The notes under the pieces: generated by a model
Database searches by the model: none
Told to the model about the DNA's origin: nothing
Seen by the model: only the letters and a program-made list of their open reading frames with translations
In this document: one piece after another, positions 1 through 41,494 of the stretch
How the letters are laid out: each line of letters begins with the position of its first letter
How positions within the stretch are numbered: position 1 is the stretch's first letter
Program-made: the position numbers and the translations under genes
Source of the DNA: a virus
Length of the DNA stretch: 41,494 nucleotides
Direction: 5' to 3' (one strand)
Virus genome (UHGV): UHGV-1357485

Positions 1-1058
1 CCGCACGTTATCTGATTTCCTTCGTAAATGAAGTCGATAGCGCGGTACACATCGTCATACAGGCCTGTTTTCAACACACACCATTGCGGACCATTGGCGC
101 TTGAAGATGCGTCGTACACAAGTACATGGCGCGGAAGATGGATAATCAGCAACTCATGAGCATCAAATCGCAAAGATTCCATCACGCCATCAGCCAGTTC
201 ATCAGCAGTGTAGGAGCGTAGTATTTTCTCAATGCTCGCGCTGGCGATTGGTGATACCTGACCGGAGCCGATGATGTACACAGACGGCGCACCTGTTGCC
301 GGATTGCTGATAAACGCATAGGAATCAGCAAACGGCGTTTTGCAGTAAGTTCCGGCGATGCCTTTTTGCACCATCAGCGATGGCTGTGCGACATACAACG
401 CGGCACCAACAGTGGTTGCACCAGTGAGGGAAAAATATTCAATCGTCGATGAACCAAAGCAGACGATGAAATCTCGCCATGTGCCGATACCGATTATTCC
501 GTCAGGCTGTGATTCTGCCCGATATTGTGCGCTGTAGCGGTCAGGATGCGATTCGTCTTCAAGGTCAGTGATAAACCATGAATCGGTGCCGTCTTTTGAC
601 CACGCATAACGCCCACGTAATCGCGTAATGTCGCGGACTGAGCCTAACTCATACTGCGTGAATCCGCTGTCTGCAGGCCAGTTTGAGACGGTTTTAACCG
701 TGCCATCATAGCGATACTCGACCAGTTGACCATTAACGCCTACAGCCTGAGATGTCCGACCATGAGCCATTGATACGCGACCACTTCCGGAAACATCACC
801 GACTTCGCTTTCGCCCTTATACAGCTTGCCCCCACACACGCGATAAACAGCACTCTGCGCCATGTTGTACTCGACGCCGCGCGATACACCGTTCACATCA
901 GAGCGTTTGGCAATGCCCGGGAATGAGCGAAGATATCCGCTGCTGTTAAGGATTTCTTTGGGTGTAGCCAACATATTCACTGGCAGATAGTCGATATAGT
1001 CAGCGTTTCTAAAGTCTTTGCCGACACCTTTCATAAGCGGAAGTTGCTGAATAGGCAT
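1..1058 (-). CDS. P22 gp10-like head-completion/tail-hub protein, 5' portion (about 352 codons); gene continues at window end
   Basis: Minus-strand ORF, ATG at 1058 overlapping the gp4 stop, open to position 1 with 2 nt of a split codon left; sits in the P22 5-4-10-26 gene order. Confidence 0.7.
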   Translation of the reverse strand, partial: MPIQQLPLMKGVGKDFRNADYIDYLPVNMLATPKEILNSSGYLRSFPGIAKRSDVNGVSRGVEYNMAQSAVYRVCGGKLYKGESEVGDVSGSGRVSMAHGRTSQAVGVNGQLVEYRYDGTVKTVSNWPADSGFTQYELGSVRDITRLRGRYAWSKDGTDSWFITDLEDESHPDRYSAQYRAESQPDGIIGIGTWRDFIVCFGSSTIEYFSLTGATTVGAALYVAQPSLMVQKGIAGTYCKTPFADSYAFISNPATGAPSVYIIGSGQVSPIASASIEKILRSYTADELADGVMESLRFDAHELLIIHLPRHVLVYDASSSANGPQWCVLKTGLYDDVYRAIDFIYEGNQITC

Positions 1059-1558
1059 TATTCGCTCCCGTTATCGCAAGGTTCCTTTCGGTGGAAGTAA
1101 TTCCAACCATTCCACTTCGCCAACTGGTTACCACTACCAACAGGCATACGGTTTGGATAACCGGACTTACATTTAGCTTCTTTTGCCCTGTCCATTGCAG
1201 ACAGTTTGACGAGTCGCTCTTTCCCGTATCTGGCAGTGGTTATAAGTTTTGCAGACGCTTCCAGCGCATAATCTGGAGCAATTCGGCAGGCAAGGTTGAA
1301 AATGACGGCATTGATAGCGTTATTTGATAAACCGTGCTCATCGCCCGGATCCGGAGCAACATCTGCATCAGCAAAAATGTAACCAACGTTGATACCAGGT
1401 GACGCATCACCGCCAAGCCATTCAGCCATCATCATTTCAAGGTCGTTGACGCCGTCTTCCATAGACTGCGGTTCGACATCGGTTAACGTGGCATTTGATG
1501 CCACACCGAGCTTACGTAATGCCGCAAGAACTAAATCACCCTTCGTTGTCAGGTTCAT
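1058..1558 (-). CDS. P22 gp4-like head-tail adaptor protein (166 aa)
   Basis: ORF track; size and position between coat and gp10 as in P22. Confidence 0.65.
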
Positions 1559-1784
1559 CTGCTGCCGCCTTAGGTTTTCGACCAGGCTTTTTACGCTGTT
1601 TTTCTTCTGGCTCTAGCTCTGGCTCTGGCTCTGGCTCTGCAACATCCTTCAAAAGGTCATCAGGATGTGAAAACCAGCCAGCATCCAGATATTCCTGAAG
1701 CTCTTCGGCTTTCACGATTTCAAAGTCGTAGCCAACGCCTTTCCACTTCTTCATGTCGCCATGACGAAAGATCATGTGTGTCAT
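1536..1784 (-). CDS. small acidic protein with (Glu-Pro)n repeat tail
   Basis: ATG at 1784 preceded by GGAGA; contains [11 protein letters not shown] encoded by a hexanucleotide repeat; start uncertain (GTG at 1832 is the alternative). Confidence 0.4.
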
Positions 1785-1796
1785 GCTTGTCTCCAG

Positions 1797-1820
1797 ATAA
1801 AAACGGGAGCCGAAGCTCCC
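1797..1820 (-). terminator. intrinsic terminator just after the coat gene
   Basis: GGGAGC-TTCG-GCTCCC hairpin followed by a T-run on the minus strand. Confidence 0.45.
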
Positions 1821-1828
1821 TCTGGTTA

Positions 1829-3124
1829 TCACGCGGTCTGGTTAGGCAGACCAACACCAATTGCCTCTGGCCGTACAGCACATGCTGAATACCACACAGC
1901 AATACGGCACTTACCAGACAGAGTATTGATATCACCCTGCGTTGCGAAGATGCCGTTAACACCAATACCAGGAATGCTGAAGGAAGACGTTTTCATGCCA
2001 GCAAACAGTTCATGGGTTACCGGAATCGGCTGAGACAGCAGGCGGATTGAGTCATCAGCCCAGAACACGTTAGCGGTGGTTGTTGCCACGTTCAGAACGT
2101 TTACCGTAGTGGAATCAGCAAGAGAGGTGTTTACGTTAGCGTAAGCCTTCTCTTCTTTTGTCAGTGAAGAGTCATCAAGCGCAATCGGCTTCGGCGTGAT
2201 TTCGATGTGAGTACTATCGATCACACGGGTGATTGAGAAAGTCGCATCATCAGTCAGCACATTCTTCGCCATCTGAGACAGGAATTTCACACCAGTGAAG
2301 CTGATTTTGTCGCCGCGCTTAAATCCGGTGGTGGAGGATACGGTCACCGTTGCAACACGGTTGTCGACGTTCTCTTTGTTACCATCGGTATCAAGGGTGT
2401 ATGCCTGCGGCTTAAACTTCTGCGCACCAGAAACTGTTACACCAGTAGCGGTTGACTTGGTAACAGCCGGAAGTTTCGGTGAGCGAAGAATTTCATCAAA
2501 GCCAGCAATCTGACGCTGAATGGTACCGTTGCGATACGCTTCTTCAGGAACGCGCCCGAAGATGTCACCATCTACCAGGTTGCGGCCTGCTTTGCGGTAA
2601 TCGTCAGGGTTCAGGAAGTAACTGATGCCCATATCGCGGTTTAGCTCACGGGAGAACATCAGGCGCTCTGCATCAGACACAAAATCCCAGCCAGACAGGC
2701 CAGTAGATGGACCAATTGCGCGGGTATCGTGAACAACAAGTGAGCCCATTTCGGTTGCCTGTTTGGCAATTGCTGACTCAATGTTATTCGCCAGTTTTTT
2801 GGCGGATGCCTGGATGCGGCGACGGTAAGAACGCTCATCACGCAGGTCATCTGCACGAAGCTCGAAGAAATCGTTATCCGGATCACCCATGTTGCATTTC
2901 ACGGAGAGTTCCAGAATCCCAGTAGCTTTGCCAGTTAAATCCCAGCCAGTCTGAGTTGGCGCTTCCTGCTCAACAGGCATCCACACGGTGTTGCTTGAAC
3001 GCTGCATGGATTCTGCCGGAGGGGTGTATTTTGTCACTTTGGACGCCATTGGCGTCAGGTTCTGGACGGTTTCGATGATTTCATCCAGAGCATACGTGAC
3101 CAGTTGACCTTCATTTAATGCCAT
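1829..3124 (-). CDS. major capsid (coat) protein, P22 gp5-like (431 aa)
   Basis: Begins MALNEGQ... and matches recalled P22 coat protein along its length; 430-431 aa. Confidence 0.9.
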
Positions 3125-4035
3125 TATCGAATTCCTTTATTCAGTTGCGCCTTGAGCTTGCGGTACGTCTCTACATCCCCTTTGTTTGCTGCCGCTTCCA
3201 TCTGCTTTTCAATCGCAGAGATATTTGCAGCAACAGCGTGTCCCTGAATGGGTTCATCAGGTAGCGGGGCTTCTGAAACAGGTTTGGCTCGAGGCTTGAG
3301 AGTTAAACGTTCTGACAGTCGAGTGAGTTCAATCAGCGCGGATTGCCCGTCCATCGCCAGCAACTGGCGTGTTTTCTCAGGATTAGCACCAAGGTGATAC
3401 ATGAGTGCAGCGGATTTCTCCGGGAAGAGGCGCATGATGTCGGCACCGACTGCTGGCGGCACCAGTTGCATGAATGCGTCCTCTTTCTCCTGATAGTCAG
3501 GGATATTGAGCTTTTCCGCTGCGTCGTAGTGCTTACGGGCTGCCTCGACGTATTGCGCTGATTGCTGGGTGAACTCCTGAGTTTTGCGGCCCTGCTCGGC
3601 GACAGCCTGGCTTCGTGCGTCCATAGCCTTGATCTGCCATTCACTGTTTGCCTGCTGGAAGGCAGCCAGTGCGCGGCTCTGGTCATAGTCGTACTTAGCC
3701 AGTGCGTCTTCGGAAAGATAATCGTTAGGGTCTGGTTGTTTTGGTAACTCAGGGTTCACCCGCAGGTGCTCCGGCAACTCCCCTCGCTTAACCGCTTCCA
3801 TCTGCTGCTCAAGCTCACGCTGGCGTTTGCGTTCGATGCGGCGACGGGCAAATTCAGCATTAGTTGCCGGGTCTTGTTTTGGTTTCTCATCGTCTTTCAG
3901 GACAATCTCGAAGCCTTCTTCCTGACCTGCGTTGTCGTTGGCATTATCGACAACTAAGCCATCAGCAGATGCCGCTGCATGATTGCCGGGCAGGGTTAAT
4001 TCTTCAGAAGCCTGAATGTCGGTGGTTTGGTCCAT
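3124..4035 (-). CDS. scaffolding protein, P22 gp8-like (303 aa)
   Basis: Position between portal and coat; charged helical protein; same length as P22 gp8; stop/start overlap with coat gene. Confidence 0.75.
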
Positions 4036-4048
4036 GATTAACTCTCTC

Positions 4049-6214
4049 TTATTGAGGTGTCTCGGCTACTCCGCCGGAGGGGATTTGAACTTGACGCATA
4101 AGATTCGCGAAATCCATGCGTTGTGAATGAGTCTGGTCTGCATCTTTAAGAAGCAGCTCAGCGTTAGCACGAGCGTCTTTGCTGCGCTGTTGCTGGAATT
4201 GACCTACGAGCTTGAGGTACTCACGCAGTTCTGCCTGCTTGTCGAGGTCCATATTGTTGAAGATTTCTGCAATCTTCGCGGCGTTGAGTTGGTTTTGGGC
4301 TTCAACCTTGGCGGCTTCAACCTGAATCTGCGCCTGTTGGTTCTCTGCCTTGAGCAATTCAGCCTGACCTTGCAGAAGGATACCCTGCGCCTGAATTTGC
4401 TCTGCTGATGGCTGCTGCGGCTGCTGTTGAGCCTGCTGTACCATCTCCATCTCTTCAGGTGTTTCTGGTTTCTTCAGCCCCATCATCACCAGTTGCTTGT
4501 TCGCGTACTCTCGCATCATCTCGACGCCTTTACCGTCAAGCAGCGTGAAGTATTGCAGCATCAGCATCTGGAACTCTGGAGTACCTTGTGGAACCTTGGT
4601 GAGTAACTCCTGAATCTCTGCGCGGTTCTGTTCCTTCATACTCTGGAAGGATGGTCCAACGTCTGTATAGCACTCATAGCGACCGCGAATGTCGTTGAGT
4701 GTGACCACATTGCCGGACTGGTAATCTACAACTTGCGCGTAGAGTTGAACGTCTTTCTCGCTTCCGTCTTCAAGAGTCAGCGTTACATGGCGAGGAACGT
4801 CATAAATATCGTTGACCATTGAGGCATAAATCTCGCCATCACGTCGCATTGCGGTAGCCAGGTTATCCTGAAACACGTATGTCTCAAGGTCTGCCCGCAT
4901 GTTCAGTTGATTGACGGTATCGAAAGCGACCTGACCATTTGCCGCCTGCGCATCCACGCCAAGACTAGCCACCTCTTTCACTGCGTTGGTGGCTGCCTCA
5001 AGCATGTAAGCGTTGGCTTGAGGCACTTCAGGGTTTTCCATGTAGGAGATTGGACCAATCGGAAGGTCGTTACCGTTTTCATCGGTCCTGTTCTGCAGAT
5101 AGTACGGATAGTCATCATTTCCACCGTACATGTATTCGTAGCCTTCGATTTGCTCAGGGAAGAAGGTCGGTTTCTTCTTCGGTGAACGAGCAACAATATC
5201 GGCGTTGAACGACATGATCATGTTACGAAGGCGTTGACCATCTTTCGTCAGCCTTACCACTCCTTCGTAGCACTCCTTGTCACCAGCGAATGACCATTCG
5301 CCATACACTGGAACGATTGGAATATGCTCTCCGGCTATCTTCTCGCGGTCTTTCAGTATCTGCGTGCAAGTGATGATCGACTTATACACACGCCGACGCT
5401 TCACCTTGCGCTCTGCTACCTTAATGAATCCACGATTAGCCAGGTCGTCGATAACGTCTTTAATATCCTGCTGGTAATAGCTGACCGGCTCACCTGTCAG
5501 CGGGTCGCGGTAGATGAAAACTTTCTCTTTCTTCTCTTCTACCTCGTAATACTCAGCGACGTAGACGACATCATTCGATACCCACGGAAACAGCCATGTA
5601 TCGTTCGGATTCTGGAAAGATGGCAGGGTGTCAGGATCAATACCGTAATCCTCTGCGAACTCTTTCCATCCATTGCGTGACAAAGCGTTAATCACCGTGC
5701 AGTGCTTAGCGTCGCTCTTATCCATCTGCTTGCTGTTGGCGTCCCATATGACGTGTGAGCAGGCTTCATGGATTGGCAGGCGTCTGATTACCTGGTTGTT
5801 GCTTGTTGGATCGTTGTCTTCGTACTGTGTGACCAGACGCCATGCACCAACGCCGGACTCTATCTGCTCACGAACGCCAACGTTAACGGCAATTTTTGCC
5901 GTGTTATGGCGCATATCGGTACGATACATTCCCATCAACACATCGGCAGCATCAGGATTAGCTCCGTCTTTTGGTCTGAAGAGAACGTCGATAGGGTTAC
6001 GGCGCATCTCTGCGACCAGCTTCCTGACCACCGGGCGAACAACATCGAATTGTCCGCGATATTGCAGGGTAGTGTAGTTTGATAGCCAGTCATCCCATTG
6101 CGACACTCGGCTAAAATACAGGTCATTTGTCGCCTCGGTTCTGGCTTCATCGCTCGCCATCCAGTCCGCGTCAAACTTACACAGAATGGAATTGAGTCTG
6201 TTTTCGTCGGCCAT
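4049..6214 (-). CDS. portal protein, P22 gp1-like (721 aa)
   Basis: Size and position after terminase; Q-rich C-terminal helical barrel region typical of P22 portal. Confidence 0.85.
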
Positions 6215-7714
6215 TTAAGTTCTCCGTGCGATGGGCCTGATTGGGGCTGGTATCTTTTTCTCTTTTGGTTTTTTGATGTCGCGCATCATTTTGGCGAAGC
6301 GGCGCATCATGTATGCATAGCGAACGGCGGATAGCACGTCGTCGTTAAGCTTGACGATCTTCCCGTTTTCATCACGGTGATAGAGGCGGAACTCCTCAAA
6401 GAATGGCTCACAGGTGTTGAATACTTTGAAGCGACCATCAAGCATCATGTCGCGCAATTCAGTGATTCCAGGCTCCACAGCGTTACCGCCATCAGGCCAT
6501 GTCGCATGCTCCTGCAACATCATAAAACCAGCGTCCGCGTACTGCCCTTTGAGCTGCTCACCGCCGCCCTTCTCATGCTGGTTTCCGTCATGAGGCCATG
6601 CGGTTGGCACTTTATGCGCCCATGATTTAACAGCTCCCCATGCCTGAACAGCTGTTTTTTCTTTCGCCTTCCACACGCGTGAAACGTAGATTGTGTCTGC
6701 GTCCTTATCCCACCAAAGCTGAACCTGCGCCTGTGGGTGATCCCATCCGAAATCCATCCCACCAATTACGTAGAAGTGATCAGGACACTCGAACGGCTGA
6801 CACTTAATAGTCTCTTCCGGTATCTGGAAGATTCGACCGCTACCCATCGTAGGAATACCGCGAGCACGCGCCTCTCTCTCATGCTCGGGATAGGATGCGA
6901 TGATTTGCTCTTTCTGCTCGTCGGTGTAGTGCTCAGCGTCATAGATGGTCATGTTGACCACTTTCTGCGACTTGCTGGGATTCTTCAGGAACTTGGTAAC
7001 AACGTCAGACATCCCCATCAGCGGGGTAAACGTCAGAATTGAGAATTGCCCGTATTTGTTGGTACGGGTAAGGCCTTCGCCATAAATGCTGTATGGTGGC
7101 TCTTCGTCAAACCACACGCCGTGGATTGTGTCACCCTGCCAGCGAGCGCGACCTTGCGAGTATGGTTTGAAGTAGCAGATTGAAATGCCATCTTCAACGC
7201 CATCAGCCGTGTGATGCTTAACCAGAAGATGATCAACAAGGTTCGGAAAGAAAGGAGACTTCTTCCAGCTAATGATGTCTTCTTTAGGTATGGAACCGTA
7301 GCCTGGCTCATCATTCTCTTCGATACGACCACACAGGATGCGTTGAGTCGTTTTGGTTACAGTCTCGTTTGTCTCGCCGCCAATCCAGAAGACAACAGGC
7401 TCATAGAAACGCTTACCTTTCCACTCCCCACCATATTTACCATCAGCCGGATAGCCTTTTGTTCCCGGATAACGCCCGGTAAGGTGAAACGCGACTTCAG
7501 CAGCCCCAGTAAATGACTTACCAAGCTGGTTACCAGCCATAAAACAGCGCTCTGGATAGTCATGCCCGGCATCGATGAACTCACGCTGTTTGCTGTATGG
7601 CGTAAATTCATATAGCAGGTGTGTGTTCCGGTAGTTCTCTTCTTCTTCGAGTAGCTCGAGCAACTCGATTTGCTCTTCGTCGCTCAGGTTATCAAGAATC
7701 GCGTCCAGTTCCAC
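6215..7714 (-). CDS. terminase large subunit, P22 gp2-like (499 aa)
   Basis: 499 aa as in P22 gp2; immediately upstream of portal; overlaps small terminase. Confidence 0.85.
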
Positions 7715-8180
7715 GGTTGAATAGCTCCTTGATACGAGAGCGCCGCTTATCGCGATCTCCCTTATCAGGTGTCACGTCTTCAACTTGCGACTGCTCTTTG
7801 AGGCCCAAATCACGGGCGATGATGTTAGCGTTGAGAAGGTCAGCGGCTGCGCCAGAGAATTTCTGGTCGTAGATGATGTCTTCCGCTCGTGATGTGACGT
7901 CAGAAAAACCTTCCATTGACCGGAAGGTTCCCCATGTTTGCCTGGTGATATCAAGGAAGGTACACAATCCTGAAATAGTCATGGCTCGCATCTTAGGGAC
8001 ATTAGCCTTAATTATTTCTCCCTGATATGAAAATACCTTACCCTCCCATAGCGGGTTATCATCAGCCCACTCGAAGTATTCACAACAAGCAGCCCACAGC
8101 GCCTCAGGCGATTCGAATTTAGGGTTTCGCCCATGACTACTGCGGGCCTCCCAGAATCGGTTGCCCTTTGGTGCTGCCAT
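7692..8180 (-). CDS. terminase small subunit, P22 gp3-like (162 aa from ATG 8180)
   Basis: [20 protein letters not shown]... N-terminus as recalled for P22 gp3; track ORF begins two codons earlier. Confidence 0.75.
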
Positions 8181-8215
8181 ATTCATCTCACTTAATCGTT
8201 ATTTCAGGTTGAGCA

Positions 8216-8470
8216 TCATGCTCCGGTGGTGAACAGGTCTAACGCTTCCTTCGATTTACGCACCGCTTCAAATGTGCGGATCGTGATATCTGAATTAGCG
8301 CCACCTGACTGGAAGTGAATTTTGAATAGCTCAAGCTTCAGTTCGTCAGTGCCAATGAATTGAAATGCTTCTTCTGCGGCTGCGTTCTGGTTCATGACCA
8401 GTTTGTAAATCTCTAACTGGAATTTCTGTTCTTCAGTCATGGGAATAATCTCTGCCATTGTTGGCTCCAT
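8216..8470 (-). CDS. hypothetical late-operon protein (84 aa)
   Basis: ORF track only; start uncertain. Confidence 0.35.
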   Translation of the reverse strand: MEPTMAEIIPMTEEQKFQLEIYKLVMNQNAAAEEAFQFIGTDELKLELFKIHFQSGGANSDITIRTFEAVRKSKEALDLFTTGA

Positions 8471-8752
8471 TTATCCGTTAAAAGGGATATCAGTTAAGTT
8501 ATCCCGTGTAGGGTATAAGCCATTGTCGAGACCACTCATTGAATGGCCTCTGCAATAACCGATGTCTTTCCATCAGTCCGCCACCACAAAGAATCTTTTT
8601 TGCCATAAGGCTGGAGGTTCATCTTTCAGTGGCTGCCAGTGTTATTTCCCCACTTACTGGCTTGGGTTGTTTCGCTGTACTGCCGTAACTGGTTACCAAG
8701 AATAAATTTTGGTTTCATTATCAAGCCCATCCGTAGATAGGCTTTGTAATGG

Positions 8753-9711: not shown

Positions 9712-10149
9712 TTATTTCATGCATTGCGTCCTGATGTACTCCTGCAGGTAGTTAACCTGCGCGGTTATCTTGTCGATTCCACTTCGGAGACGGTAATAAT
9801 TGAGTTCAGCATCTGCTGTAAGTCTTGGGCTTTCTCCATCGCCCATGCTGCTGGCTCCGGTCGTTGACTTTGCACAGGTGGCGGCGACTTGCAGGCGCTT
9901 ACGACCAGCAGAAACATCAGCACGGAGACTTTCGATAGTCGCGTTAGCATCAGCAAGCTCCTTTGTGTATCTGGCGTCGAGTTCTGCTACATCACGTTGA
10001 CGCTTCTGCATGTCAGCGATGATGTACGTGGCTTTATCGCGCTGTTCTTTATAGGCGATGGCGTTATCACGGTAATGATTAACAGCCCACGACAGGCAGA
10101 CGATAATGCAGATAACCAGAGCGGAGATAATCGCGGTTACTCTGCTCAT
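9712..10149 (-). CDS. Rz: i-spanin Rz (145 aa from ATG 10149)
   Basis: [31 protein letters not shown]... near-identical to recalled lambda Rz N-terminus; start overlaps endolysin stop. Confidence 0.85.
9765..9956 (-). CDS. Rz1: o-spanin Rz1 lipoprotein embedded in +1 frame of Rz
   Basis: Embedded ORF with lipobox (LLVVSAC) and Pro-rich mature region. Confidence 0.65.
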
Positions 10150-11417: not shown

Positions 11418-11423
11418 GGGTCA

Positions 11424-11452: not shown

Positions 11453-11494
11453 TATCATGCCGTTAATATGTTGCCATCCGTGGCAATCATGCTG

Positions 11495-17692: not shown

Positions 17693-17698
17693 GTGTTA

Positions 17699-31748: not shown

Positions 31749-32474
31749 TTAGGCTGCGGTAGAAACATTAACCAGATTTCTCAATACTTCAACTCCTTTT
31801 GAGTTGTAGCGGAACGCCTCTACCTGTTTGCTGGAATGCGCAGATTTATCTAGGAAGAACTTGCCGTACTGCTCAGTTTTGAGGTTGTTTGCGTTAGCAA
31901 TGCGACCAATCTTGTTGGCCGTTACTCCCAGCTGCTCTGCAACCTCCCCTGCTGAGTAGTAATGCTCTTCTATTGCTGGAAGAGGTATTGCATTAAAACC
32001 AACGATCGGGTTGATTATGCTTGCTGCCGCAGTCTGCTTTGCTTCCGGCGCAAGATTTGGCATCAAATCGAACAGATTGGTAACAGCGTCAACCGTCATT
32101 TTCAATGTTCGCGCCTGGCGATACTCAACAAGTCCACTCGCTGATTTACCGCTTTTAATGTGCGCTTCCTGCATACTTTCAAGTTTGTCTACAAGTGTTC
32201 GGCGAACTGCTTTAGATTCGCGAGCAGCAACACGAAGCGCCTGCTTGATAGTCATGGAGATAACATCAATGTCAGCCCCGTTTTTCCGACCTACACTTTT
32301 TGTGTAGGTCTCGCCTTCCAATTCATCCTCAATTTTCTCGATGAATTTGTTGTTACGTACTGATGGCTCTCCACATAACTTGCGAGCTTCATTAACCATC
32401 ATCAGAAGACTTTGGCTGTCAATGGTTTTATCCGTGACAACGGATCCGATGTTTGCTACATTCTTAAAAGTCAT
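31749..32474 (-). CDS. antirepressor C-terminal (ANT/KilAC-like) module, 241 aa; in frame with the upstream Ant ORF across a TGA
   Basis: C-terminal ...HYYSAGEVAEQLGVTANKIGRIAN... resembles ANT domain; track ORF starts directly after the Ant stop in the same frame. Confidence 0.45.
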   Translation of the reverse strand: MTFKNVANIGSVVTDKTIDSQSLLMMVNEARKLCGEPSVRNNKFIEKIEDELEGETYTKSVGRKNGADIDVISMTIKQALRVAARESKAVRRTLVDKLESMQEAHIKSGKSASGLVEYRQARTLKMTVDAVTNLFDLMPNLAPEAKQTAAASIINPIVGFNAIPLPAIEEHYYSAGEVAEQLGVTANKIGRIANANNLKTEQYGKFFLDKSAHSSKQVEAFRYNSKGVEVLRNLVNVSTAA

Positions 32475-32561
32475 TAGGCATTCCTTATGTGGTAGTAAGG
32501 GTGTGACATAGGCCGCCAGCAGCACACTGGCGGTTTTCTTTTGCGCCGTCCTGTGCACCAA

Positions 32562-33200
32562 TCAATTAATCCATTCCTCGCCGCGAAGTTTTTCCAGCAT
32601 TGGCTGAGCGTTCTTTACGACAAAATTGTTGGTATCAAGATTCTTCATTTCACGAAGAAGCGATTTCTTGGTTTCTTCTGACATGTAGCGAGTCTCATAT
32701 GCAATATCGTAAATCCTTCCTGAAAGCTCAGAACCAATTTGCTTCATTCCTGGGTAGATGTGTTTGCACATTTGTTGACTCTTCTCCATCCACAATTGTA
32801 AGTAGCAGAGATTAACCAGCTCTTCGTCAGTGAACTGTTTTGCAATCGGTGAGCATTCTGCCTGCCGCTCCAAAATATCCAGCACCCAGCGGCGGAACTC
32901 TTTAGCCTTGGGCGTAGAAGCAAACATCGCCACCAAGTGAGCGCCTCGGAGCGAGTAAACTCTGACCGATTTGTTACGTAAGCTATTGTTTATCCCGTTG
33001 ACCTTCATATTGAGGGTCAATGACATTGAGTCGGAAAACTCGTCAGCATTACGGGCATAAATTTGGCTGATGGCATCAGTTTTTTTATAGCCGAGAGCCT
33101 TAGCTAGTTCGGTGGAGGTAAACCAGATAGACCCACCCTCTGTTACAGGGTTAAAGGTGAATCCTTGGAAGTTATAATCTGATTTTGCTACAATGTTCAT
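32562..33200 (-). CDS. ant: antirepressor Ant, BRO-N/AntA N-terminal module (212 aa)
   Basis: ...WFTSTELAKALGY...AKEFRRWV... resembles AntA/Bro-N; AAGGAAA RBS before ATG 33200; follows arc as in P22 immI. Confidence 0.6.
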   Translation of the reverse strand: MNIVAKSDYNFQGFTFNPVTEGGSIWFTSTELAKALGYKKTDAISQIYARNADEFSDSMSLTLNMKVNGINNSLRNKSVRVYSLRGAHLVAMFASTPKAKEFRRWVLDILERQAECSPIAKQFTDEELVNLCYLQLWMEKSQQMCKHIYPGMKQIGSELSGRIYDIAYETRYMSEETKKSLLREMKNLDTNNFVVKNAQPMLEKLRGEEWIN

Positions 33201-33273
33201 GTTAGTTTCCTTGCATACGGTTACTGACATAGAGGCCCGGTTTGTGTTCGCGCACTGCCGGGCTTCACTATTT

Positions 33274-33447
33274 TTACTGGGCATTAACTCTTTCCTCTCT
33301 CAGGCTTTTAGCCAGTCGCTGCACAATCGCAGAGTTGATAGAAATTCCATCCATTTCAGCAACACGTCTAATCTCCTCCTTCATTCGCGCTGGCAAACGA
33401 AGCTGGAAACTTTGACTTTTACGACCTGTGTAAAGCACATCTTTCAT
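33274..33447 (-). CDS. arc: Arc-like ribbon-helix-helix repressor (57 aa)
   Basis: ...FQLRLPARMKEEIRRVAEMDGISINSAIVQRL... RHH signature; GGAGG RBS before ATG 33447. Confidence 0.7.
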   Translation of the reverse strand: MKDVLYTGRKSQSFQLRLPARMKEEIRRVAEMDGISINSAIVQRLAKSLREERVNAQ

Positions 33448-33469
33448 AAGTAATCCTCCCACAATGATA

Positions 33470-33485
33470 CCAACTTGGTTCTAGA
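33470..33485. promoter_or_regulatory. 16-bp perfect palindrome TTGGTTCTAGAACCAA in the divergent arc/mnt promoter region (candidate operator)
   Basis: Perfect inverted repeat between divergent RHH genes; coordinates approximate. Confidence 0.45.
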
Positions 33486-33558
33486 ACCAATTTAACACCA
33501 TTTATTTTGATGTCAAGTTGGTGCTATTGTTTAGCGAACATCTTTACGTTGAGGTCAT

Positions 33559-33879
33559 ATGAGCAAGTTCCCTAGTCATGAAATGGATAGGTTCAATATC
33601 AGGCTTCCGGCAGGAATGCGGGATGCTATAGCTGAACGAGCCAAACGTAACGGCAGATCAATGAACTCAGAGATTGTTCAGATACTGGAAGATGCCTTGA
33701 ATGCAGAAAATACACTCGGGGAAATAGCAGATAAAATCAACAGCGTCTCGGTTCCGCTAAATGTTGATGCGCTAGTTCAACTTCAAGCCCAGGTTATCGC
33801 CATGCAAAAAGAAATACAGGAAAAGTTCAGAGAGCAGAACGAAAAGTTGAGAGAACTGCTAAACAAAAAACCCACCTGA
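33559..33879 (+). CDS. mnt: Mnt-like ribbon-helix-helix repressor (106 aa)
   Basis: ...FNIRLPAGMRDAIAERAKRNGRSMNSEIVQILEDAL... resembles P22 Mnt; divergent from arc-ant. Confidence 0.7.
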   Translation: MSKFPSHEMDRFNIRLPAGMRDAIAERAKRNGRSMNSEIVQILEDALNAENTLGEIADKINSVSVPLNVDALVQLQAQVIAMQKEIQEKFREQNEKLRELLNKKPT

Positions 33880-33896
33880 CGGTGGGTTAATTTTTG
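33865..33896. terminator. bidirectional terminator overlapping the mnt stop
   Basis: AAAAAA-CCCACC-TGAC-GGTGGG-TTAATTTTT. Confidence 0.5.
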
Positions 33897-33977
33897 CCTT
33901 TTTTGGACCATATTGACTACTCATAAAATGAGATCAATATTTAATCGCCCAATAACGGGTGCATGTTGAGGTATATC

Positions 33978-34157
33978 ATGGCGAAAAAACCAGGTGAAAA
34001 CACAGGAAAAAACGGCGGAATATACCAAGAAGTTGGCCCACGCGGCGGTAAGAAAGACAATTTTGCCACCGTCAAGGACAACGAAAGGCTTCCACCAACA
34101 ACAAAGCCAGGTCATGGCTGGGTATTAGATAAGCGAACTCCAGACAGCAAAAAGTAA
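33978..34157 (+). CDS. small Gly/Lys-rich protein (59 aa), possibly YjzC-like
   Basis: Own promoter-like TTGACT at about 33913; GAGGT RBS; MAKKPGENTGKNGGIYQEVGPRGG...; family assignment tentative. Confidence 0.45.
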   Translation: MAKKPGENTGKNGGIYQEVGPRGGKKDNFATVKDNERLPPTTKPGHGWVLDKRTPDSKK

Positions 34158-34170
34158 TAATCAAGCCGGG

Positions 34171-34536
34171 TCACTCCGGCTTTTTGATATGTCGCTCGCA
34201 GAACTCAACAAGCCTGCTCATTAAGTAGCAGTAAGTCTCGTTGGCTCTTCCTGGTTCAACATCAACACCGACCCTTGAGCAGATATCGAATGCCATGTGA
34301 GCGCACTCATGGGCAATAGTAGATAGTTTGCCATTGAACACACCTATCACATGCAAAACACCATTCTCGCTGCTCATTGTATGAGACGCTCCGTTGGCAT
34401 CCGAGTCCTGCACGTCCACGCCAAGTTTTTGATGCAGGCGTTGCCATTCTGGAAAGTCTCTGCAAAACACAATCGTACCGCTCTCAAAGAGCGGTACGAG
34501 CATCTTTGGTACGTTTCCAATGTTAACTTTTTTCAT
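34171..34536 (-). CDS. hypothetical protein with HECAH (HExxH-like) motif (121 aa) at the P22 sieA position
   Basis: ATG 34536 preceded by AGGA; motif IAHECAHMAFD; follows the ejection genes on the late strand. Confidence 0.45.
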   Translation of the reverse strand: MKKVNIGNVPKMLVPLFESGTIVFCRDFPEWQRLHQKLGVDVQDSDANGASHTMSSENGVLHVIGVFNGKLSTIAHECAHMAFDICSRVGVDVEPGRANETYCYLMSRLVEFCERHIKKPE

Positions 34537-34566
34537 GGTATCCTGCGAAAAACTAAGGAGGTTGGT

Positions 34567-34956
34567 GTGAAGCAATTTCTTGCTGCTATGTTCTTATTCA
34601 TATCTTTTGGGGCTACAGCAGAGTGCTGGGTCGTTGGAGATATGCGCGGAATAAGCTATTCAGAGCGAAATAATTTCCATCCGGAAGAAGATGGTTTTAG
34701 TGGAACATTTATCATTAAGACAAGCGGTGAAGATGCCAGCATCACATATTCTGGGACGGATGCTGGCGGCATGGCTTACAAAGCATTGTCTAAAAACTCC
34801 ATCATAGGAATCGGCGCGAATGGCGAAACTCAACGAGTTATCGACTCATGGGTAATACATCCTAATGGAACAGTTTTAATGTCGAAAACCATTTCCGGTT
34901 ATGGAAATATGGATTCAACCAAAGCTTTTGTTGGAAAAGTAAAAAGAAAATGCTAA
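34567..34956 (+). CDS. secreted protein with signal peptide (129 aa, GTG start)
   Basis: AAGGAGG 5 nt upstream of GTG 34567; N-terminal K-then-hydrophobic stretch ending ATA-E (signal-peptidase-like). Confidence 0.55.
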   Translation: MKQFLAAMFLFISFGATAECWVVGDMRGISYSERNNFHPEEDGFSGTFIIKTSGEDASITYSGTDAGGMAYKALSKNSIIGIGANGETQRVIDSWVIHPNGTVLMSKTISGYGNMDSTKAFVGKVKRKC

Positions 34957-35233: not shown

Positions 35234-37387
35234 TTACATCTTTTGGTCGCCGTCACTGGCTGTAGTATCTTGCTGAGATAACCATGTAATAATCCCAGTG
35301 CGAGCAATGGTTTTTGCTTCATCTGTTGATAGGGTTTTCTCCCATCTCTTAAATACCCCAGATTGCATCAGTTTCCTTTCTATTGCGCGTCTCACTTCTG
35401 CTCTGTCTACTGGTGCGTTTTGCAGGCGAAATAGCATTGATTTAAACTCAGGAGAAGACAGTAGAGCATCAGCAGCCTTTATCCTGCTTGTTTTCCCTGA
35501 CATCAATGCGGACGTTATCACCCCTGTTGCACCTACACCAGGAAGACCAGATAAGCTTGTAACACCTTCCGCCGCAGCAGCTTTTGAGGCTATTCCATAA
35601 ATTTTTGCTAGACTACCCTTTTCCTTCAGAAAGTTATTAACTTGCTGATCCACAAGGCTGCTAGCATACTGCTTACCAGTATTGAGTCTATTCATAGCCT
35701 TGGCTGCTTGATAAATCGTATCAAGGCGCTTTGATGCATCTGTGCCAATAGCATCACGGAGAGCCTTCATATTGGCCCCATTGCGTGACATTCCGTTATA
35801 CCATTTTACAAATCCATCAACCCCTAATTGCTGACCTGGTGATTTAGCATAGCTGGTAAATGCTTTATTCATTGAGGTGAGCGCAACTTCCTGCCGCATA
35901 TCCTTTGGAATTGACTTCATTAATTGCCTAAAGTCACCACCGTTTCCTTTTGCCATATTAACAACGGCACTTTCAACTTTTGGAATTGCTGATTGCTGAA
36001 GTTTTCTACCCAAAACGGTTACGGCATCATCTTCAATGGATTTTCGTGTTTTTACCAACTCCTTACCAAGCGTCCATAACTCCCCTGCGCCATATTTTTC
36101 TGCGACAGCCTGTTGGTCATCTGTTATAGCTGCATATAACTTTTTAAGAACACCTGTTTCTTCATCCTTGAATGGGCCAGAGCCTTTGCCAATAGCTTGC
36201 CCAACCTGCTTTCTAGCGAGATCTAAACGCCCATACGTTGGCAAGGTGTTTGGATCAAGTCGGTTCAATGTCCGCTTCATTATTGGAGATAATTCATCAA
36301 TTCCACCTATGTCATCAGCAAAATCCTCTAAAAAATTCAATGTATTGGTTGCCTCAATACGGTCTCTTACTGGAACCTTTTCGGCAATTTTGTTGTAGAT
36401 GTTATCTGACTGATTTTGTAATGATGAAATGGTTTTATCAAAATTATCTGCAAGCCTGTCAGAAACCAGTTGCTTATCAAGGTTTCCCCCAAATGAAGTT
36501 ATCATTTCATCAGCTTTTCTTCCTAATTCAGTAATAAAGCGCTTATGCGCCTCACTAATCTCTGTTCCAGGGAGGCTTGCCACTGCATTATCAAGAGCCC
36601 TGACAGCAGGATTATTAGAGATCATTCCTGGAGTGGCATAATTTTCCAGTTCTAGCTCACGGATGGCATTTATCGCGTTAAAATCAGGATTAACTTCATC
36701 GGCGAAACCTTGAATAGCTCGTTGTCCGCCAATAAATTTATTATCCATTGCGCCAGCAGCTTTCTTTAACGTTGCTTTAGATGATTTACTCCCCATCCCT
36801 ACGGATGAGCGATAAATATCCCCGGCACTATTTTTAATTTTTCCTGCAATCTTCCCAAGCGCTGGACCAACAATCTCGGCTACAGGGCCAGCCACAGCGC
36901 CAATAGCAGCGCCGGAAGCAACATCGCTATTTGTTCCATTGGCTACAATAGCCCCTTCTCCAGCACCAAGCCCTGCGGCGGCAGCCAGCCTTGCCGCTCC
37001 TTTCGGAACCTGAGAAATAATCCCACCACCACTAACAAATGGCGCTGCTTGTCCAACAAACTCACCAACATCTTGTGCGGTTGATGGTTTTGCCGCTAAC
37101 TTCTGCTGTAGAGACTGAATTGCGGCTTGCTCTTCTGGTGTCATATCCTGAAACAGGCCAACACCTTTACCAACATCCATCAATCCACTGAGAACGCCAT
37201 ACATAAAACGGTCGAAACCGTTAGCATTATTAACAACATTTTCCTGTCTGGAATTTTCCTCTGGTGAAACCAAAGGAGATTGCTGCTGTTCTGGTTGGGA
37301 ATCAAGCACAAAGCCATCAGGAAGTTGTGAGTTATCAGGCTGTTCATCCAGAACAAACCCCTCTGGTAAACCTACATTGGTTGCCAT
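35234..37387 (-). CDS. ejection (internal virion) protein, P22 gp16-like (717 aa)
   Basis: Position and order 26-14-7-20-16; Ala/Gly-rich. Confidence 0.65.
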
Positions 37388-38721
37388 TGTCCGTTCCTGT
37401 AAATAATTTTCTGACCAGTTTTAGGATTTTTCGCGGTCATACCTTCTCGAAATGTTTGACCGCCAGATGTTGCTTGTTGTGTCTGTTGTTGCGCAGGCTG
37501 CTGAATATCTTCATACAGCTTGGCTTTTCTGGATTGCAATTGCTTAGTTAGTCCGCTGGGGAGAGAATCTCCATAAGTTGAAAGATAATCATCCATTTGC
37601 TGATTAAACTTTTCGCCTTCAGTATTTGCCATCAGTTTTGAGGTGTTGATTAAGTCCTGGACTTGCTCATTATTCAGCATCTTGCCGTTAGATAATTGGC
37701 TAACATAGTTACCAAGTGTGCCGAATATTCCATCAGTGCGTTTTACCTGCACTTGCTCACCTTCGCGTACCACAGATTGCGGATCCAGCGATTTCATATA
37801 GTTGAAAATCATTCCCAACTGCGCGGCTGGAGTGTTGCGCTTCCCAAGGGCTTGTAGGTTGTCAGAAGCACTGCGCATTGCAGAATAATTCTTTGAGAAC
37901 CCATTAATATCACTATTCAGATCTCGAACAAGTTTTGGGTCAATCTTTCCGCTTTCCTGTTGTTTCATCCCTAATTCCTGCAACTTCAGGGCTACGTTAT
38001 CATTATGCATTTGTGCCCGCTGAGCCCTGTCTAGTTGAGCGTTCTGGATATTTGCCCATCCTCTCGCATTCTCCATGTCAGCCTGACGGATGCTTTCATC
38101 CAATCGCCCTTTCTCAAGTTGGCGACCAGCCATCTTGTCCTGAACAGCAAACGCCTTTTCTGGTCCAAGCGCACCGAGAGACATAGTAGTCAACATGTGT
38201 GATAGCTGCTCTGGATTCTGGATACCTGTCTGAATCATCCAGTCAGCATTCGCCCCCACGCGATTTAACCTGTCCTTGTTGTCAGTAATGAATTTACTGT
38301 AGGCTTCCGGTCCCTGAGAAAGAGCGACGTTAGCCCTCATGGCTAAATCGCCCATATCGTTGCGTTGCTGCTCATTAAGACCGGAAAACGCCTGTTGTGC
38401 CTGCGCCACAAACGCTGGATTTTCCTGGGCAAACTTAAATAGTCCCGATGGATCACCAGAAGCCCATGCATCAGCGTGAACCTTATTGAACGCACTAATA
38501 GCTTTCTGTTGCTGTTCCTGATTGTAAATATCAGCAACTCCAGCCAGACCACGTAACGCGGTCAGGCCAACGTTATTTGCACCTGAGCGAGCCAGTTCAT
38601 TGTTTTCGCGGATCAGACCAAGCGTTGCGTTAATGTCGCTTGCCTTTGGCGCATTCTCATTTTGCGTACCGATGCCAGCCAGAAAACCACCAGAATTAAT
38701 ACCCTGTTGCCACGTAGCCAT
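37372..38721 (-). CDS. ejection protein, P22 gp20-like (449 aa)
   Basis: Position and size. Confidence 0.65.
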
Positions 38722-38731
38722 TGATTACCCC

Positions 38732-39427
38732 TTAATAAAGCAGTGAACCAAGCAGACCGATACCAGCACCGATACCAGCACCCCACGGAGTTGATGAACC
38801 AATTAATTTCGCAAGTCCAGCCCCAGCAATAGCACCAGACGCACCTCCGCCAATAGCAGATTGCATTGCTGATGGTCTGTTGGCATTTGCCGCTGCAAGA
38901 GCCGCACTTTGCTGCGAAATCTGACTCATGTTGTTGGCATATGTCTGCCCGGCGTTTGCCTGACCTTGCAGTGCGCCAAGACCAATATTTGCCAGATTCT
39001 GGTAGTTGTTCATCTGACCAGATAGCCATTGCTGACCAAGCGTTGGTGCGATTGTTGCTAACTGATTACCGGTTGCAGTGGAACCCAATCCACCTGTTGC
39101 TTCCGCTGCCGCCAGACTCTGATAGCGAGCCTGACCAGCAAGATCTTTGTACTGCTGAGAGTTGTAATACTGGTTAAGTGCCTGACCTTGCCCTTCCAGA
39201 GACGATAAGTTCTCGAGGCTGCCGACATACTTATCAGCCAGAGGAGTAAACGGCTTCAGGTTGTTCATGATGGTGTTGAACTGCTGATTTTGCAGGTCTG
39301 CGGAATACTTCTGGGCTTCTGCGGCATACTTTGCGCTTTTATCAGAACTGCCACCTTTCCCGCCTTTTTCAGGGCAATAAGGTTCCTCGCCGCGCAGTTT
39401 TCTGCCCAGCTTAAATGCATATAACAT
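38732..39427 (-). CDS. ejection protein, P22 gp7-like (231 aa)
   Basis: Size as P22 gp7 (229 aa); Gln/Ala-rich with Gly-rich C-terminus. Confidence 0.65.
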   Translation of the reverse strand: MLYAFKLGRKLRGEEPYCPEKGGKGGSSDKSAKYAAEAQKYSADLQNQQFNTIMNNLKPFTPLADKYVGSLENLSSLEGQGQALNQYYNSQQYKDLAGQARYQSLAAAEATGGLGSTATGNQLATIAPTLGQQWLSGQMNNYQNLANIGLGALQGQANAGQTYANNMSQISQQSAALAAANANRPSAMQSAIGGGASGAIAGAGLAKLIGSSTPWGAGIGAGIGLLGSLLY

Positions 39428-39429
39428 GG

Positions 39430-39885
39430 CTATCTCCCGTGATTCAGGAAGTCGATTAGTTCTTCGCGTGTGGCGCTGTAAAAAGTCACGTCATCCACGC
39501 CTTTAAAGTATTTCTTGATGGTTCCGACACGCTTAAGGCCAATCATTGCGCAGTAAATCTGCCCGTGGCGGAATTTGCGTGCGGCGAACGATGTGACGCA
39601 CTGAACGGTGGTGTTAGTCAGAATGTATCGCCAGAACGCCAGCCCTATTTCTTTGCTGAAGCCGCGAATCTCTGGCAGGTACATGGCGTGGCAATCGAAT
39701 GTCAGCGGCTGAATCTCCTGATAGTAAACAATGCCGCCAAACTGACCGTGCACGTTCACCTCAAAGTAACGGCAATCAGGTTTGTAGTCGTATCCATCGC
39801 CGTTGTTGCTCCCGGCAATAATGTCAGGGTGATTTCCGACTGCTTCTATCAGGTCGATGTTTCGCGTTGGTTTGAATGTAATCAT
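39430..39885 (-). CDS. virion-associated protein at the P22 gene 14 position (151 aa)
   Basis: Position between tail needle and gp7-like genes; identity uncertain. Confidence 0.45.
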   Translation of the reverse strand: MITFKPTRNIDLIEAVGNHPDIIAGSNNGDGYDYKPDCRYFEVNVHGQFGGIVYYQEIQPLTFDCHAMYLPEIRGFSKEIGLAFWRYILTNTTVQCVTSFAARKFRHGQIYCAMIGLKRVGTIKKYFKGVDDVTFYSATREELIDFLNHGR

Positions 39886-40586
39886 CAGTCAATCAGCCCA
39901 TGTAATCTAAGTGCCGTTTCAAGCGCCAGAATACGCTGCCGCGCCTGCTGCAAACCTGTAGCGAGAGTTGCGACTTCGGATTGTGTGTACGTAGTGCCGA
40001 CAGTGTATGACTGGTTAGCGTTGAATGAGCCGAGGAGTGCCGTTCCGGTTGCTGCTGTCCATCCTGTCTGACGAGCACCGATAACCTTGGTGCCGCCGAC
40101 TGAATAGGATGTTGTTACGTTGAGGGGGGATGCCAGCGATTGTGTTGCTGTGGCTGTTTTCGATACGTAATCGTCCTGCAATGCAGAAATATTTCCTTCA
40201 GCCTCCGTCACTCTACCATCGAGAGCACTGACATCAGCCTGCAAGGTGACTATTTCACCTTCAGCCGTGGTTAGTCTGACATCCAGCGACGCGATTGCAT
40301 TGGTATTTGCAGTAATACGGATTTCATGGTCGTCTACGTCGATGCGGAGCTGACGAATTCTTTCTTCGTGATCGACCAGAATCACATCCTGCTCATCGTT
40401 CCTGACTTGTGCGTCATAAGCGCCCTGTCCGGCCTCGTTGGCCTTGTTCGCCACGTTACCAACATCAGTACCCTGTGCGATAACGTACAGCAGATATGAC
40501 TGCGAGAAGATATTGCGTGGAAGGATTGATGTATCGAGCCGCGTCGCCTGAACAATAACAGGGGTGTTGAGATTCGAATCAGCCAT
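39885..40586 (-). CDS. tail needle protein, P22 gp26-like (233 aa)
   Basis: [25 protein letters not shown]... then trimeric coiled-coil heptads; GGAGG RBS; same length as P22 gp26. Confidence 0.8.
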
Positions 40587-41112
40587 TAACATGCCTCCAT
40601 GCCTTGCCATTTACAATTCTACTAACCTTTGAATTGTGAATTCCAAATAATTTAGCAACTTCACACTGAGGAAATCCATTGGCAACCATTTCTTTTATCT
40701 TTATGACATCATCATTAGATATTTTAGAATTACCATTCCTTTCTCCTTTTACATTACCTCTCGACTCCAATCCATATGAGTGTGAGATATTTCCTGATGG
40801 AGTAACCCATTCAAGATTTAGATAGTTATTATTATATTTATCACCATCTATATGATTTACCTGTAACCCTTCAGCAAATCCACCAACAAAGTGAGATGCA
40901 ACAAGCTTATGTATTAGTATGTTCTTTTTTACGCCATCCTTATATAAACACACATACTTATATCCATTTACGTTATGATTATGCTTCAGCCACCTACCCT
41001 TAATAAGACGTCCCCTCAAATTTACTCTTGAATGCGAGTAAACTCTACCATCATTAGTGATGGCGTACAGTCCTTCATATCCTTCGATATCTTTTGCGTT
41101 TTCACTTAACAT
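40579..41112 (-). CDS. HNH homing endonuclease (177 aa)
   Basis: N-terminal ...[15 protein letters not shown]... (NUMOD4-like), HNH region ...[10 protein letters not shown]..., C-terminal HTH-like; AT-rich; AAGGAG RBS; inserted between gp10 and gp26. Confidence 0.75.
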
Positions 41113-41133
41113 ATCTACTCCTTGAGTTTCGAT

Positions 41134-41494
41134 TTATGTTACACGAATAGAAAGGCCTGATAATGTGACAGGACCTTTTGCAATAACCCTGAATTTAAAT
41201 CCAATGAGGCGTCTAACTCGACCAACCTTTCGCCATAAAACGCGATTGTCATATACAAATGGTTTTTGTAATACGACCATTTGCTCACGACCGTAACTAA
41301 TTCCATCTGTAGTGGCTGATATAAATATTTTATCTATTCTATCACACACGCCGCCCGATGTTTCTAATTCAAGGTCATTTATTAAAGCGTTATCTGCCTT
41401 TATTAGAGGGGAATATAAAATATGCTCTTGTTGTTTTTCGTATTGTGAAGATATATCGAATTGCAATTTCCCGGTCACCGATTCCAGTTTGTCG
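41134..41494 (-). CDS. P22 gp10-like protein, 3' portion (C-terminal about 120 aa); ORF open to window end
   Basis: Minus-strand ORF running off the window end with 1 nt of a split codon; joins in frame with positions 2-1 to give 1,419 nt (472 codons plus stop). Confidence 0.7.
   Translation of the reverse strand, partial: DKLESVTGKLQFDISSQYEKQQEHILYSPLIKADNALINDLELETSGGVCDRIDKIFISATTDGISYGREQMVVLQKPFVYDNRVLWRKVGRVRRLIGFKFRVIAKGPVTLSGLSIRVT

Follow-up and report, generated by a model that had tools for sequence, protein, structure and literature searches.

UHGV-1357485, very probably a complete P22-like phage genome whose circular map is opened inside gene 10

The P22-like phages begin to package their DNA at a pac site in gene 3 and fill their heads by the headful, which yields DNA that is terminally redundant and circularly permuted (PMC8022706, PMC10345575). 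Phage L, a P22-like phage, assembles as a circle because its DNA has these two properties (PMC8022706), and the head of P22 has a capacity of 43.4 kilobases (kb) (PMC10345575). As to integration, the sequence CTGCAGGGGACACCAT has been reported as the attachment core of the prophage KplE1, whose recombination module is common to HK620, Sf6, and CUS-3 (PMC2951348). Here we describe the viral genome UHGV-1357485, a stretch of 41,494 base pairs (bp) that we refer to, at its full length, as the window. Its first and last bases both fall inside the homologue of the P22 tail-accessory gene 10. We conclude with high confidence that the window represents one complete unit genome of a temperate podophage, P22-like and belonging to the genus Lederbergvirus, with Escherichia or a close relative as its source, and that it is presented as a circular map opened inside that gene.

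The closest described phages are four in number. P22 (BK000583) is the architectural prototype, HK620 (NC_002730) has the same gene order as the window and is likewise treated as a circular map, and IME10 (NC_019501) and HZ41 (OM022251), both carrying an IntS integrase, are the best overall matches. In DNA alignments, the gene order of the window is collinear all round the circle with IME10, HK620, and P22, and the aligned share of the window amounts to 48%, 38%, and 40%, respectively, the remainder being the usual mosaic replacements. Over positions 1-25000, HZ41 and IME10 are the best phage matches, with 97% identity over 66% of that part, while HK620 shows 96% identity over 42% of it. In neither half of the window does any phage record reach a coverage of 80%, and the pattern is mosaic. 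The size of 41,494 bp falls inside the range of 38-42 kb found among the relatives.

The ends of the window divide gene 10 into two parts, as follows.

1 to 1058, minus strand, 5' part of gene 10 (packaged-DNA stabilisation or head-closure protein), with the ATG at 1058-1056, codons 1-352, and two nucleotides (nt) of codon 353.
41134 to 41494, minus strand, 3' part of gene 10, with the last nucleotide of codon 353, codons 354-472, and the stop codon at 41134-41136.

When the end of the window is joined to its start, translation of the minus strand beginning with the ATG at 1058 passes through one uninterrupted frame of 472 codons and a stop, 1419 nt in all, to which the window start contributes 1058 nt (352 codons and 2 nt) and the window end 361 nt (1 nt, 119 codons, and the stop). 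Codon 353 is GGC (Gly), and the opening point lies between its second and third bases. The original prediction, according to which a gp10-like gene leaves the window at position 1 with two nucleotides of a codon outstanding and is taken up again at the window end, where one nucleotide is outstanding, is exact, and the predicted joining of the parts in frame to 1,419 nt (472 codons and a stop) is confirmed by the translation across the junction, which meets no frameshift or premature stop. This length was also said to be that of P22 gp10, and indeed gene 10 measures 1419 nt in P22 (annotated at 6788-8206), in HK620 (26516-27934), and in IME10 (26453-27871). The joined protein is 91.3% identical to the gp10 of HK620 and 87.0% identical to that of P22 (471 aligned residues; subject length 472), and it covers positions 1-468 of the 469 in the Pfam model PF11134, Phage_stabilise, with 935.7 bits.

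The nucleotide comparisons bear directly on the claim that the window ends are contiguous, and they uphold it. The 600 nt centred on the junction align with a prophage of E. coli 20AR0354 at 579 of 600 positions and without a gap, and a register-by-register comparison shows that HK620, IME10, P22, and the 20AR0354 prophage all stay in register over the junction. Among 5,426 complete E. coli genomes, 36 hold the joined 2 kb around the junction at one place with at least 80% coverage; the best of these matches are single ungapped pieces of about 96-97% identity, and the annotation of the locus in E. coli reads “packaged DNA stabilization protein”, “NUMOD4 domain-containing protein”, and “tail needle knob protein”. 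One unrelated IMG/VR contig contains the exact 42-mer formed by the last 22 and the first 20 bases of the window; this contig is a degraded prophage whose identity to the window amounts to 93.6% over 1.1 kb across the junction. In all, five independent records can be aligned over the junction with no gap, and the IMG/VR contig is a sixth witness to it. A terminal overlap of the kind left by circular assemblers is absent, as there is no common 12-mer within 500 nt of each window end. In the join, nothing is missing and nothing is duplicated, and the agreement over the junction is far beyond chance.

The point at which the circle was opened is arbitrary and without biological meaning. The break in gene 10 is about 7 kb away from gene 3 and is therefore not a packaging end. 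The arbitrariness of such openings is shown by IME10, for which two GenBank records of the same 39,646-bp genome start at different points.

The integration region, which lies far from the junction, is composed of the following elements.

26087 to 26287, plus strand, excisionase gene xis of the TorI/HkaC type, 66 amino acids (aa), 100% identical to HK620 HkaC.
26361 to 26376, plus strand, attP core CTGCAGGGGACACCAT, 16 nt, the first 15 of which are the 3' end of the tRNA-Arg gene argW.
26537 to 27694, plus strand, gene of the integrase IntS, 385 aa, 97.4% identical to HK620 Int.

The integrase matches the Pfam families Phage_integrase, Phage_int_M, and Arm-DNA-bind_3. The core is present in the window as a single exact copy between xis and int, so that the order of xis, attachment core, and int given in the original prediction is literally correct; it is also the order annotated in HK620, where the 16-bp attP core lies between int and hkaC (TorI). 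Each arm of the site finds its counterpart at a different end of the 20AR0354 prophage. On the right, the match to the attL side of the prophage begins at 26361, with the last 15 nt of argW, and runs into intS; on the left, window positions 26020-26376 match its attR end, which comprises torI/xis and the arm up to the core, beside dsdC. The two matches overlap in the 16 nt of the core. The two genes sit at opposite ends of the prophages, intS next to argW/yfdC and torI next to dsdC, whereas in the window both genes flank one core copy. Because the left arm matches attR and the right arm matches attL, the site is an attP and not a prophage end: it is an intact, unrecombined attP of the HK620/KplE1 type, in the form carried by the free phage. 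ARAGORN finds no tRNA gene in the window, hence no complete argW; no Rfam family is matched and there is no host RNA gene, and the window holds no flanking host gene or chromosome.

The 3' end of tRNA-Arg is seen in two E. coli prophage loci, L001 and L002. The possibility that the int region is host DNA or part of a prophage was considered when O157:H7 chromosomes matched it through a feature annotated “tRNA-Arg”, and was rejected: of argW, no more than the final 15 nt belong to the match, and a prophage origin is also ruled out by the opposite side of the core, which is phage xis DNA. Locus L001 (E. coli O157:H7 PV15-279, NZ_AP018488.1 3246401-3252703) is a decayed P22-like prophage situated at argW in O157:H7 strains, in which intS is fused directly to a truncated ejection-protein gene; gene 7, gene 14, and part of the tail needle gene come next, and the prophage ends at an IS1203. 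It matches window positions 26361-28355 at 96.6%, reaching past int into the intergenic region and the start of the acetyltransferase gene.

The attachment site also separates the window from P22, whose attP targets thrW and is located outside int-xis, next to gtrA, whereas that of the window lies between xis and int and targets argW. KplE1 (CPS-53) of E. coli K-12 has the identical core, IntS, and TorI, with int and the gene of the recombination directionality factor on opposite sides of att (PMC2951348), and differs in being a 10-kb defective prophage, while the window is a full-length genome in attP form.

The content of the circle is that of a whole phage. We compared the open reading frames (ORFs) of the window with the annotated proteins of P22 and HK620 by BLASTP (E 1e-5) and added Pfam and PHROG scans, and each P22-like module was found to be present once. 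The structural part of this single-copy set comprises the small and large terminase subunits, portal, scaffold, coat, gp4, gp10, gp26, gp14, gp7, gp20, the gp16 equivalent, and the tailspike; the other part comprises immI (mnt, arc, and the antirepressors), int, xis, the recombination genes, sieB, N, cI, cro, cII, O, P, the nin genes, Q, and the lysis genes. According to best BLASTP matches and gene order, the virion assembly genes follow the P22-type order 3-2-1-8-5-4-10-26-14-7-20-16, and GP3_package, Terminase_6N/6C, P22_portal, P22_CoatProtein, P22_Tail-4, and Phage_stabilise are all matched above the Pfam cut-offs. Assigned genes contain 86% of the bases, the gaps being the usual regulatory regions, and the sole repeat of at least 30 nt in the window is formed by the iterons of the origin. 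The in-frame join, the single-copy modules, and the attP form together bear out the earlier claim of a whole genome linearised inside gene 10.

The two genes from which the packaging mode can be judged are these.

6215 to 7714, minus strand, gene 2, terminase large subunit (TerL), 499 aa, 92.6% identical to P22 gp2.
7692 to 8186, minus strand, gene 3, terminase small subunit (TerS), Pfam GP3_package, 82% identical at the amino acid level to P22 gp3.

The identity of TerL extends over 497 of the 499 aa, with matches to Terminase_6N and Terminase_6C, and portal and coat belong to the P22 Pfam families; with respect to P22, the portal is 78%, the coat 73%, and the scaffold 85% identical. Gene 3 shares 491 of its 495 nt with the IME10 gene, and its central third has diverged from P22 and is almost identical to IME10. 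By homology with P22, the phage would replicate to concatemers, its gp3 would recognise a pac site inside gene 3, and its gp2 would cut and translocate the DNA, filling each head with slightly more than one genome length. The virion DNAs would then show both terminal redundancy and circular permutation. Reads from such permuted DNA, or from an excised or replicating circle, would assemble into an endless circle, which the software or the depositor would open at an arbitrary base. A circular assembly is thus to be expected, since headful packaging yields permuted, redundant DNA. If the head has the capacity of that of P22, the terminal redundancy would be about 1.9 kb (4.6%), or about 2.7 kb without the IS1 element described below. 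The genome had been called circularly permuted in advance. What the sequence itself shows is only a circular map with an arbitrary opening; that the packaged DNA is permuted is suggested by the homology to a P22-type terminase.

It had also been stated that there is no host DNA. This is correct for flanking chromosome, with neither tRNA nor host gene in the window, and incorrect for one bacterial element that resides in the ea region.

24661 to 25428, minus strand, complete IS1 of 768 bp, bounded by terminal inverted repeats of 23 nt (24661-24683 and 25406-25428).

The ORF of the element matches DDE_Tnp_IS1 (E = 5.9e-78), and its target duplication of 9 bp, CAACGACTC, is found at 24652-24660 and 25429-25437, with a start-to-start spacing of 777 nt. 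It splits an early gene of the eaG/hkaD type, and its flanks overlap by exactly 9 bp on the uninterrupted sequences of HK620 and P22. The junction of IS1 with eaG, searched with 200 nt (100 nt of phage and 100 nt of IS1), is absent from all 5,426 E. coli genomes and from the contigs of IMG/VR, while the IS1 half of this query matches 4,982 of those genomes. The insertion is private to this genome. IS1 is a mobile element acquired from the host, not flanking chromosome, and leaves the conclusion unaffected.

Three observations weigh against a simple reading of the window as a permuted phage genome opened at random. First, the junction is about 16-40 nt away from a mosaic joint in gene 10 and could reflect a break in the assembly graph; the two positions differ, and an independent prophage has the joint in uninterrupted sequence. 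Second, the internal IS1 indicates passage through a bacterial genome. Third, the stretch equivalent to the 22-bp pac site of P22 (window positions 7892-7913, in gene 3) agrees with it in no more than 15 of the 22 bases, and with up to five mismatches allowed the 22-mer of P22 is found nowhere in the window, on either strand. The IME10 record likens its own gene 3 to the gp3 of LP7, PS3, and PS34, and it is from the 15 matching positions together with the IME10-type gene 3 that we take the pac specificity class of this phage to be probably different from that of P22.

The alternative that survives best is that the circle represents an excised prophage, a replicative intermediate, or a circularisation made in silico, and not permuted virion DNA; we consider this unlikely, and the genome would still be complete. 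An intact attP is what excision by Int and TorI regenerates, IS1 points to time spent in a bacterial genome, and a prophage of an isolate genome in IMG carries the block of int, acetyltransferase, and tailspike at 98.4% identity, all of which would suit an excised origin. Such an origin gives the same circle as a permuted genome does, however, and sequence alone cannot separate the two; a circle made by hand from attL and attR would more naturally be opened at att than in gene 10, and the P22-type terminase predicts permuted virion DNA regardless.

It is very improbable that the window is a chimeric assembly, in which ends from different related phages would be closed in appearance through their common gene 10. 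This possibility derives from the composition of gene 10 itself, of which the last 106 or so codons (41134 to about 41452) form an AT-rich divergent module, with a G+C content of 29-40% compared with about 50% upstream. The foreign module starts some 40 nt from the junction, and about 16 nt before the window end the identity to the 20AR0354 prophage, 100% on one side, shifts to about 95%; the joint of the module lies at about 41453-41478, 16-40 nt from the junction. The shift in identity is nevertheless not at the junction, the same module joint is continuous in independent E. coli chromosomes, the core genes are single copy and in canonical order around the circle, and mosaic joints of this kind occur all over the window when it is compared with any relative. 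We therefore reject a chimeric closure, given that the joint lies off the junction and is continuous in independent chromosomes.

More improbable still is an incomplete linear contig that ends in gene 10 by accident, with a multiple of three nucleotides missing or duplicated. This is the default possibility for any contig, with no result in its support, and it is refuted by the gapless alignments over the junction: the joined gene has exactly the 1419 nt that it has in P22, HK620, IME10, and the E. coli prophage, the Pfam model is covered practically from end to end, the junction 42-mer exists elsewhere, and the ends do not overlap. Lastly, the idea that the window was excised from a bacterial chromosome as a prophage, perhaps together with flanking host DNA, has practically no chance of being the explanation, for although IS1 is a host-type element and close relatives are argW prophages in many E. 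coli genomes, the attP arrangement refutes it, with xis and int facing each other over a single copy of the core 16-mer where prophages have them at opposite ends, no tRNA or host genes, and an IS1 that simply inserted, with a duplication of 9 bp, where HK620 and P22 have contiguous sequence.

With the window taken as a complete circular genome, the divergent end of gene 10 can be considered together with the gene that adjoins it.

40579 to 41112, minus strand, free-standing gene of an endonuclease with NUMOD4 and HNH_3 domains, 177 aa, located between genes 10 and 26.

In Pfam, this gene matches NUMOD4 (5.1e-13) and HNH_3 (5.1e-10), as well as HTH_23 at 0.0016, short of its cut-off, and it is assigned to PHROG 59, “HNH endonuclease”, at 2e-49. 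P22, HK620, and IME10 lack it and have no gene at all at this place. It is found in 36 of the 5,426 E. coli genomes, namely those with at least 80% of the 2-kb junction query, and among 50,697 phage records only HZ41 has part of the cassette. The C-terminal module of gene 10 shows about 60% nucleotide and about 65% amino acid identity to HK620 and P22, and it is 100% identical to the 20AR0354 prophage, which also carries the HNH gene. By their sequences, the HNH gene and the replacement in gene 10 look like a homing-endonuclease cassette with a co-converted flank. The closeness of the window junction to the edge of the cassette (about 40 nt) is probably a coincidence or an effect of the assembly graph. 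A further step, which we put forward tentatively and as a possibility somewhat against the odds, is that P22-like phages may have, in the cassette of about 0.86 kb (approximately 40589-41452), a homing element that is active and intronless. Its endonuclease would cut gene 10 at the ordinary 3' end in relatives that co-infect the cell or reside in it, the divergent gp10 C-terminus being the co-converted flank that is immune to cleavage.

The region between int and immI carries a tailspike and a possible conversion gene.

27868 to 29031, minus strand, Acyl_transf_3 O-antigen acetyltransferase-like gene, 387 aa when read from TTG (translation may in fact begin further inside), G+C content 32%, between int and the tailspike.
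29105 to 31645, minus strand, tailspike, 846 aa, with a P22-type head-binding domain at residues 1-113.

The head-binding part of the tailspike is clearly that of the group, with Pfam Head_binding at residues 1-113 (E = 1.3e-64) and 90% identity to HK620 gp9 over residues 1-115. For the receptor-binding part (29105-31285, G+C content about 38%), the nearest phage is Hafnia phage TS33, with 57.8% amino acid identity; no near DNA match exists in the 5,426 complete E. coli genomes, and a pattern scan of 185,579 species-representative genomes gave no confirmed relative of the receptor domain. This part is 99% identical to the IMG/VR entry UViG 2545824644_000015, the prophage mentioned above that shares the block of int, acetyltransferase, and tailspike at 98.4% at the nucleotide level. 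Another IMG/VR match, L008, was rejected; it is 70% identical at the protein level and has no DNA in common with the window. The acetyltransferase-like gene is a probable lysogenic conversion gene that would modify the O-antigen; at the corresponding position, Sf6 carries oac. For the pair of tailspike and acetyltransferase, megablast finds no close DNA match in the 5,426 complete E. coli genomes.

The complete gene map is the canonical one of P22-like phages. On the minus strand, the head side runs from gp10 through gp4, an orf69-like ORF, coat, scaffold, portal, TerL, and TerS to hkbM/L/K, and the map continues with Rz/Rz1, lysozyme, holin, Q, the nin genes (ninH, rus, HkbD, ninF, ninX, ninE, and ninB), P, O, cII, and cro. 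After cro come cI, hkaS, and N on the plus strand and then sieB on the minus strand, followed by c3, erf, an ssb-like ORF, abc2, the ea genes, xis, attP, and int. The ssb-like ORF has no database match, and its putative label comes from its position only. After int, the acetyltransferase and the tailspike stand on the minus strand, and then two antirepressors, arc, mnt, hkcC, and the gp16 equivalent; the map closes with gp20, gp7, gp14, gp26, and the HNH gene, back to gp10. The coordinates of the regions not given so far are listed next.

1058 to 6214, minus strand, head genes: portal 4049-6214, scaffold 3124-4035, coat 1829-3124, orf69-like ORF 1536-1832, gp4 1058-1558.
9712 to 12118, minus strand, late regulator Q (11495-12118) and lysis cassette.
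Lysis genes within that cassette, minus strand: holin-like ORF 10621-10824, lysozyme 10146-10649, Rz/Rz1 9712-10161 and 9765-9956.
14813 to 17129, minus strand, replication genes: O-like 16239-17129, P/DnaB-like 14813-16264.
17312 to 20062, both strands, immunity region: cII 17312-17590 (minus), cro 17699-17899 (minus), cI 18000-18716 (plus), hkaS, N 19718-20062 (plus).
31749 to 34575, immI-like region: antirepressors 31749-32561 and 32562-33284, arc-like 33274-33462, mnt-like 33559-33879, and homologues of orf59a and hkcC.
35234 to 39885, minus strand, ejection-protein genes: 14 at 39430-39885, 7 at 38732-39427, 20 at 37372-38721, gp16 equivalent at 35234-37387.
39885 to 40610, minus strand, gene 26, tail needle, assigned by BLASTP.

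Some of these regions deserve a comment of their own. Inside the O-like gene, at 16649-16755, there are iterons with 11-nt units resembling CGTTGGACAAC, arranged in four overlapping 30-nt copies, and this cluster is the likely replication origin, of the lambda type. In the immI-like region, two different antirepressor-type genes stand in tandem at 31749-33284, one belonging to PHROG 1726, “anti-repressor”, and the other being a Bro-N/P22_AR_C gene, whereas P22 has only one ant gene at this place. The protein in the position of gene 16 (717 aa, 35234-37387) has no BLASTP match to the gp16 of P22 or HK620 at E 1e-5; its match to PHROG 6704 is full-length, and that to PHROG 770, “DNA transfer protein”, is weak. 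In related prophages, the protein at this position is labelled as a lytic transglycosylase-domain protein.

The comparison with each relative shows how these modules were combined. The proteins of the window are close to those of HK620 in the integration, immunity, and replication regions and in Q (Int 97.4%, TorI 100%, cI 99.6%, cro and cII 100%, P 99.6%, and Q 99% identical), as well as in gp10 (91%). The head and packaging genes, in contrast, are of the P22/IME10 type, while those of HK620 are APSE-like: the portals are only 33% identical, and the TerL and coat of the window have no HK620 match at E 1e-5. HK620 also differs in the receptor domain of the tailspike, in having the O-antigen polymerase gene hkcF where the window has the acetyltransferase gene, and in lacking the HNH cassette and IS1. 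With IME10, the window shares a head and packaging block (1-8559) that is 96.7% identical; IME10 and HZ41 are unlike the window in the lysis, nin, and ea regions, in the tailspike, in the conversion gene, and in gp16, and IME10 has neither the HNH cassette nor IS1. The immunity, replication, and tailspike modules of P22 differ from those of the window.

The window can be used as a complete genome for annotation, in which gene 10 is best annotated across the origin and not split in two; it would be preferable for the record to start at a conventional position, for example gene 3 or int. Circular assemblies of headful-packaging phages are routine, and the result is ordinary and expected and touches no open question. 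The genome combines a head and terminase block of the IME10/P22 type, the immunity and replication genes and the argW integration module of HK620, and a tailspike and conversion pair of its own, and it is a new mosaic member of the well-known genus Lederbergvirus, within the HK620/IME10 group of P22-like phages of E. coli. If the homing interpretation of the HNH cassette were true, the genome, with its private IS1 and its rare pair of tailspike and acetyltransferase, would be a snapshot of three independent mobile acquisitions.

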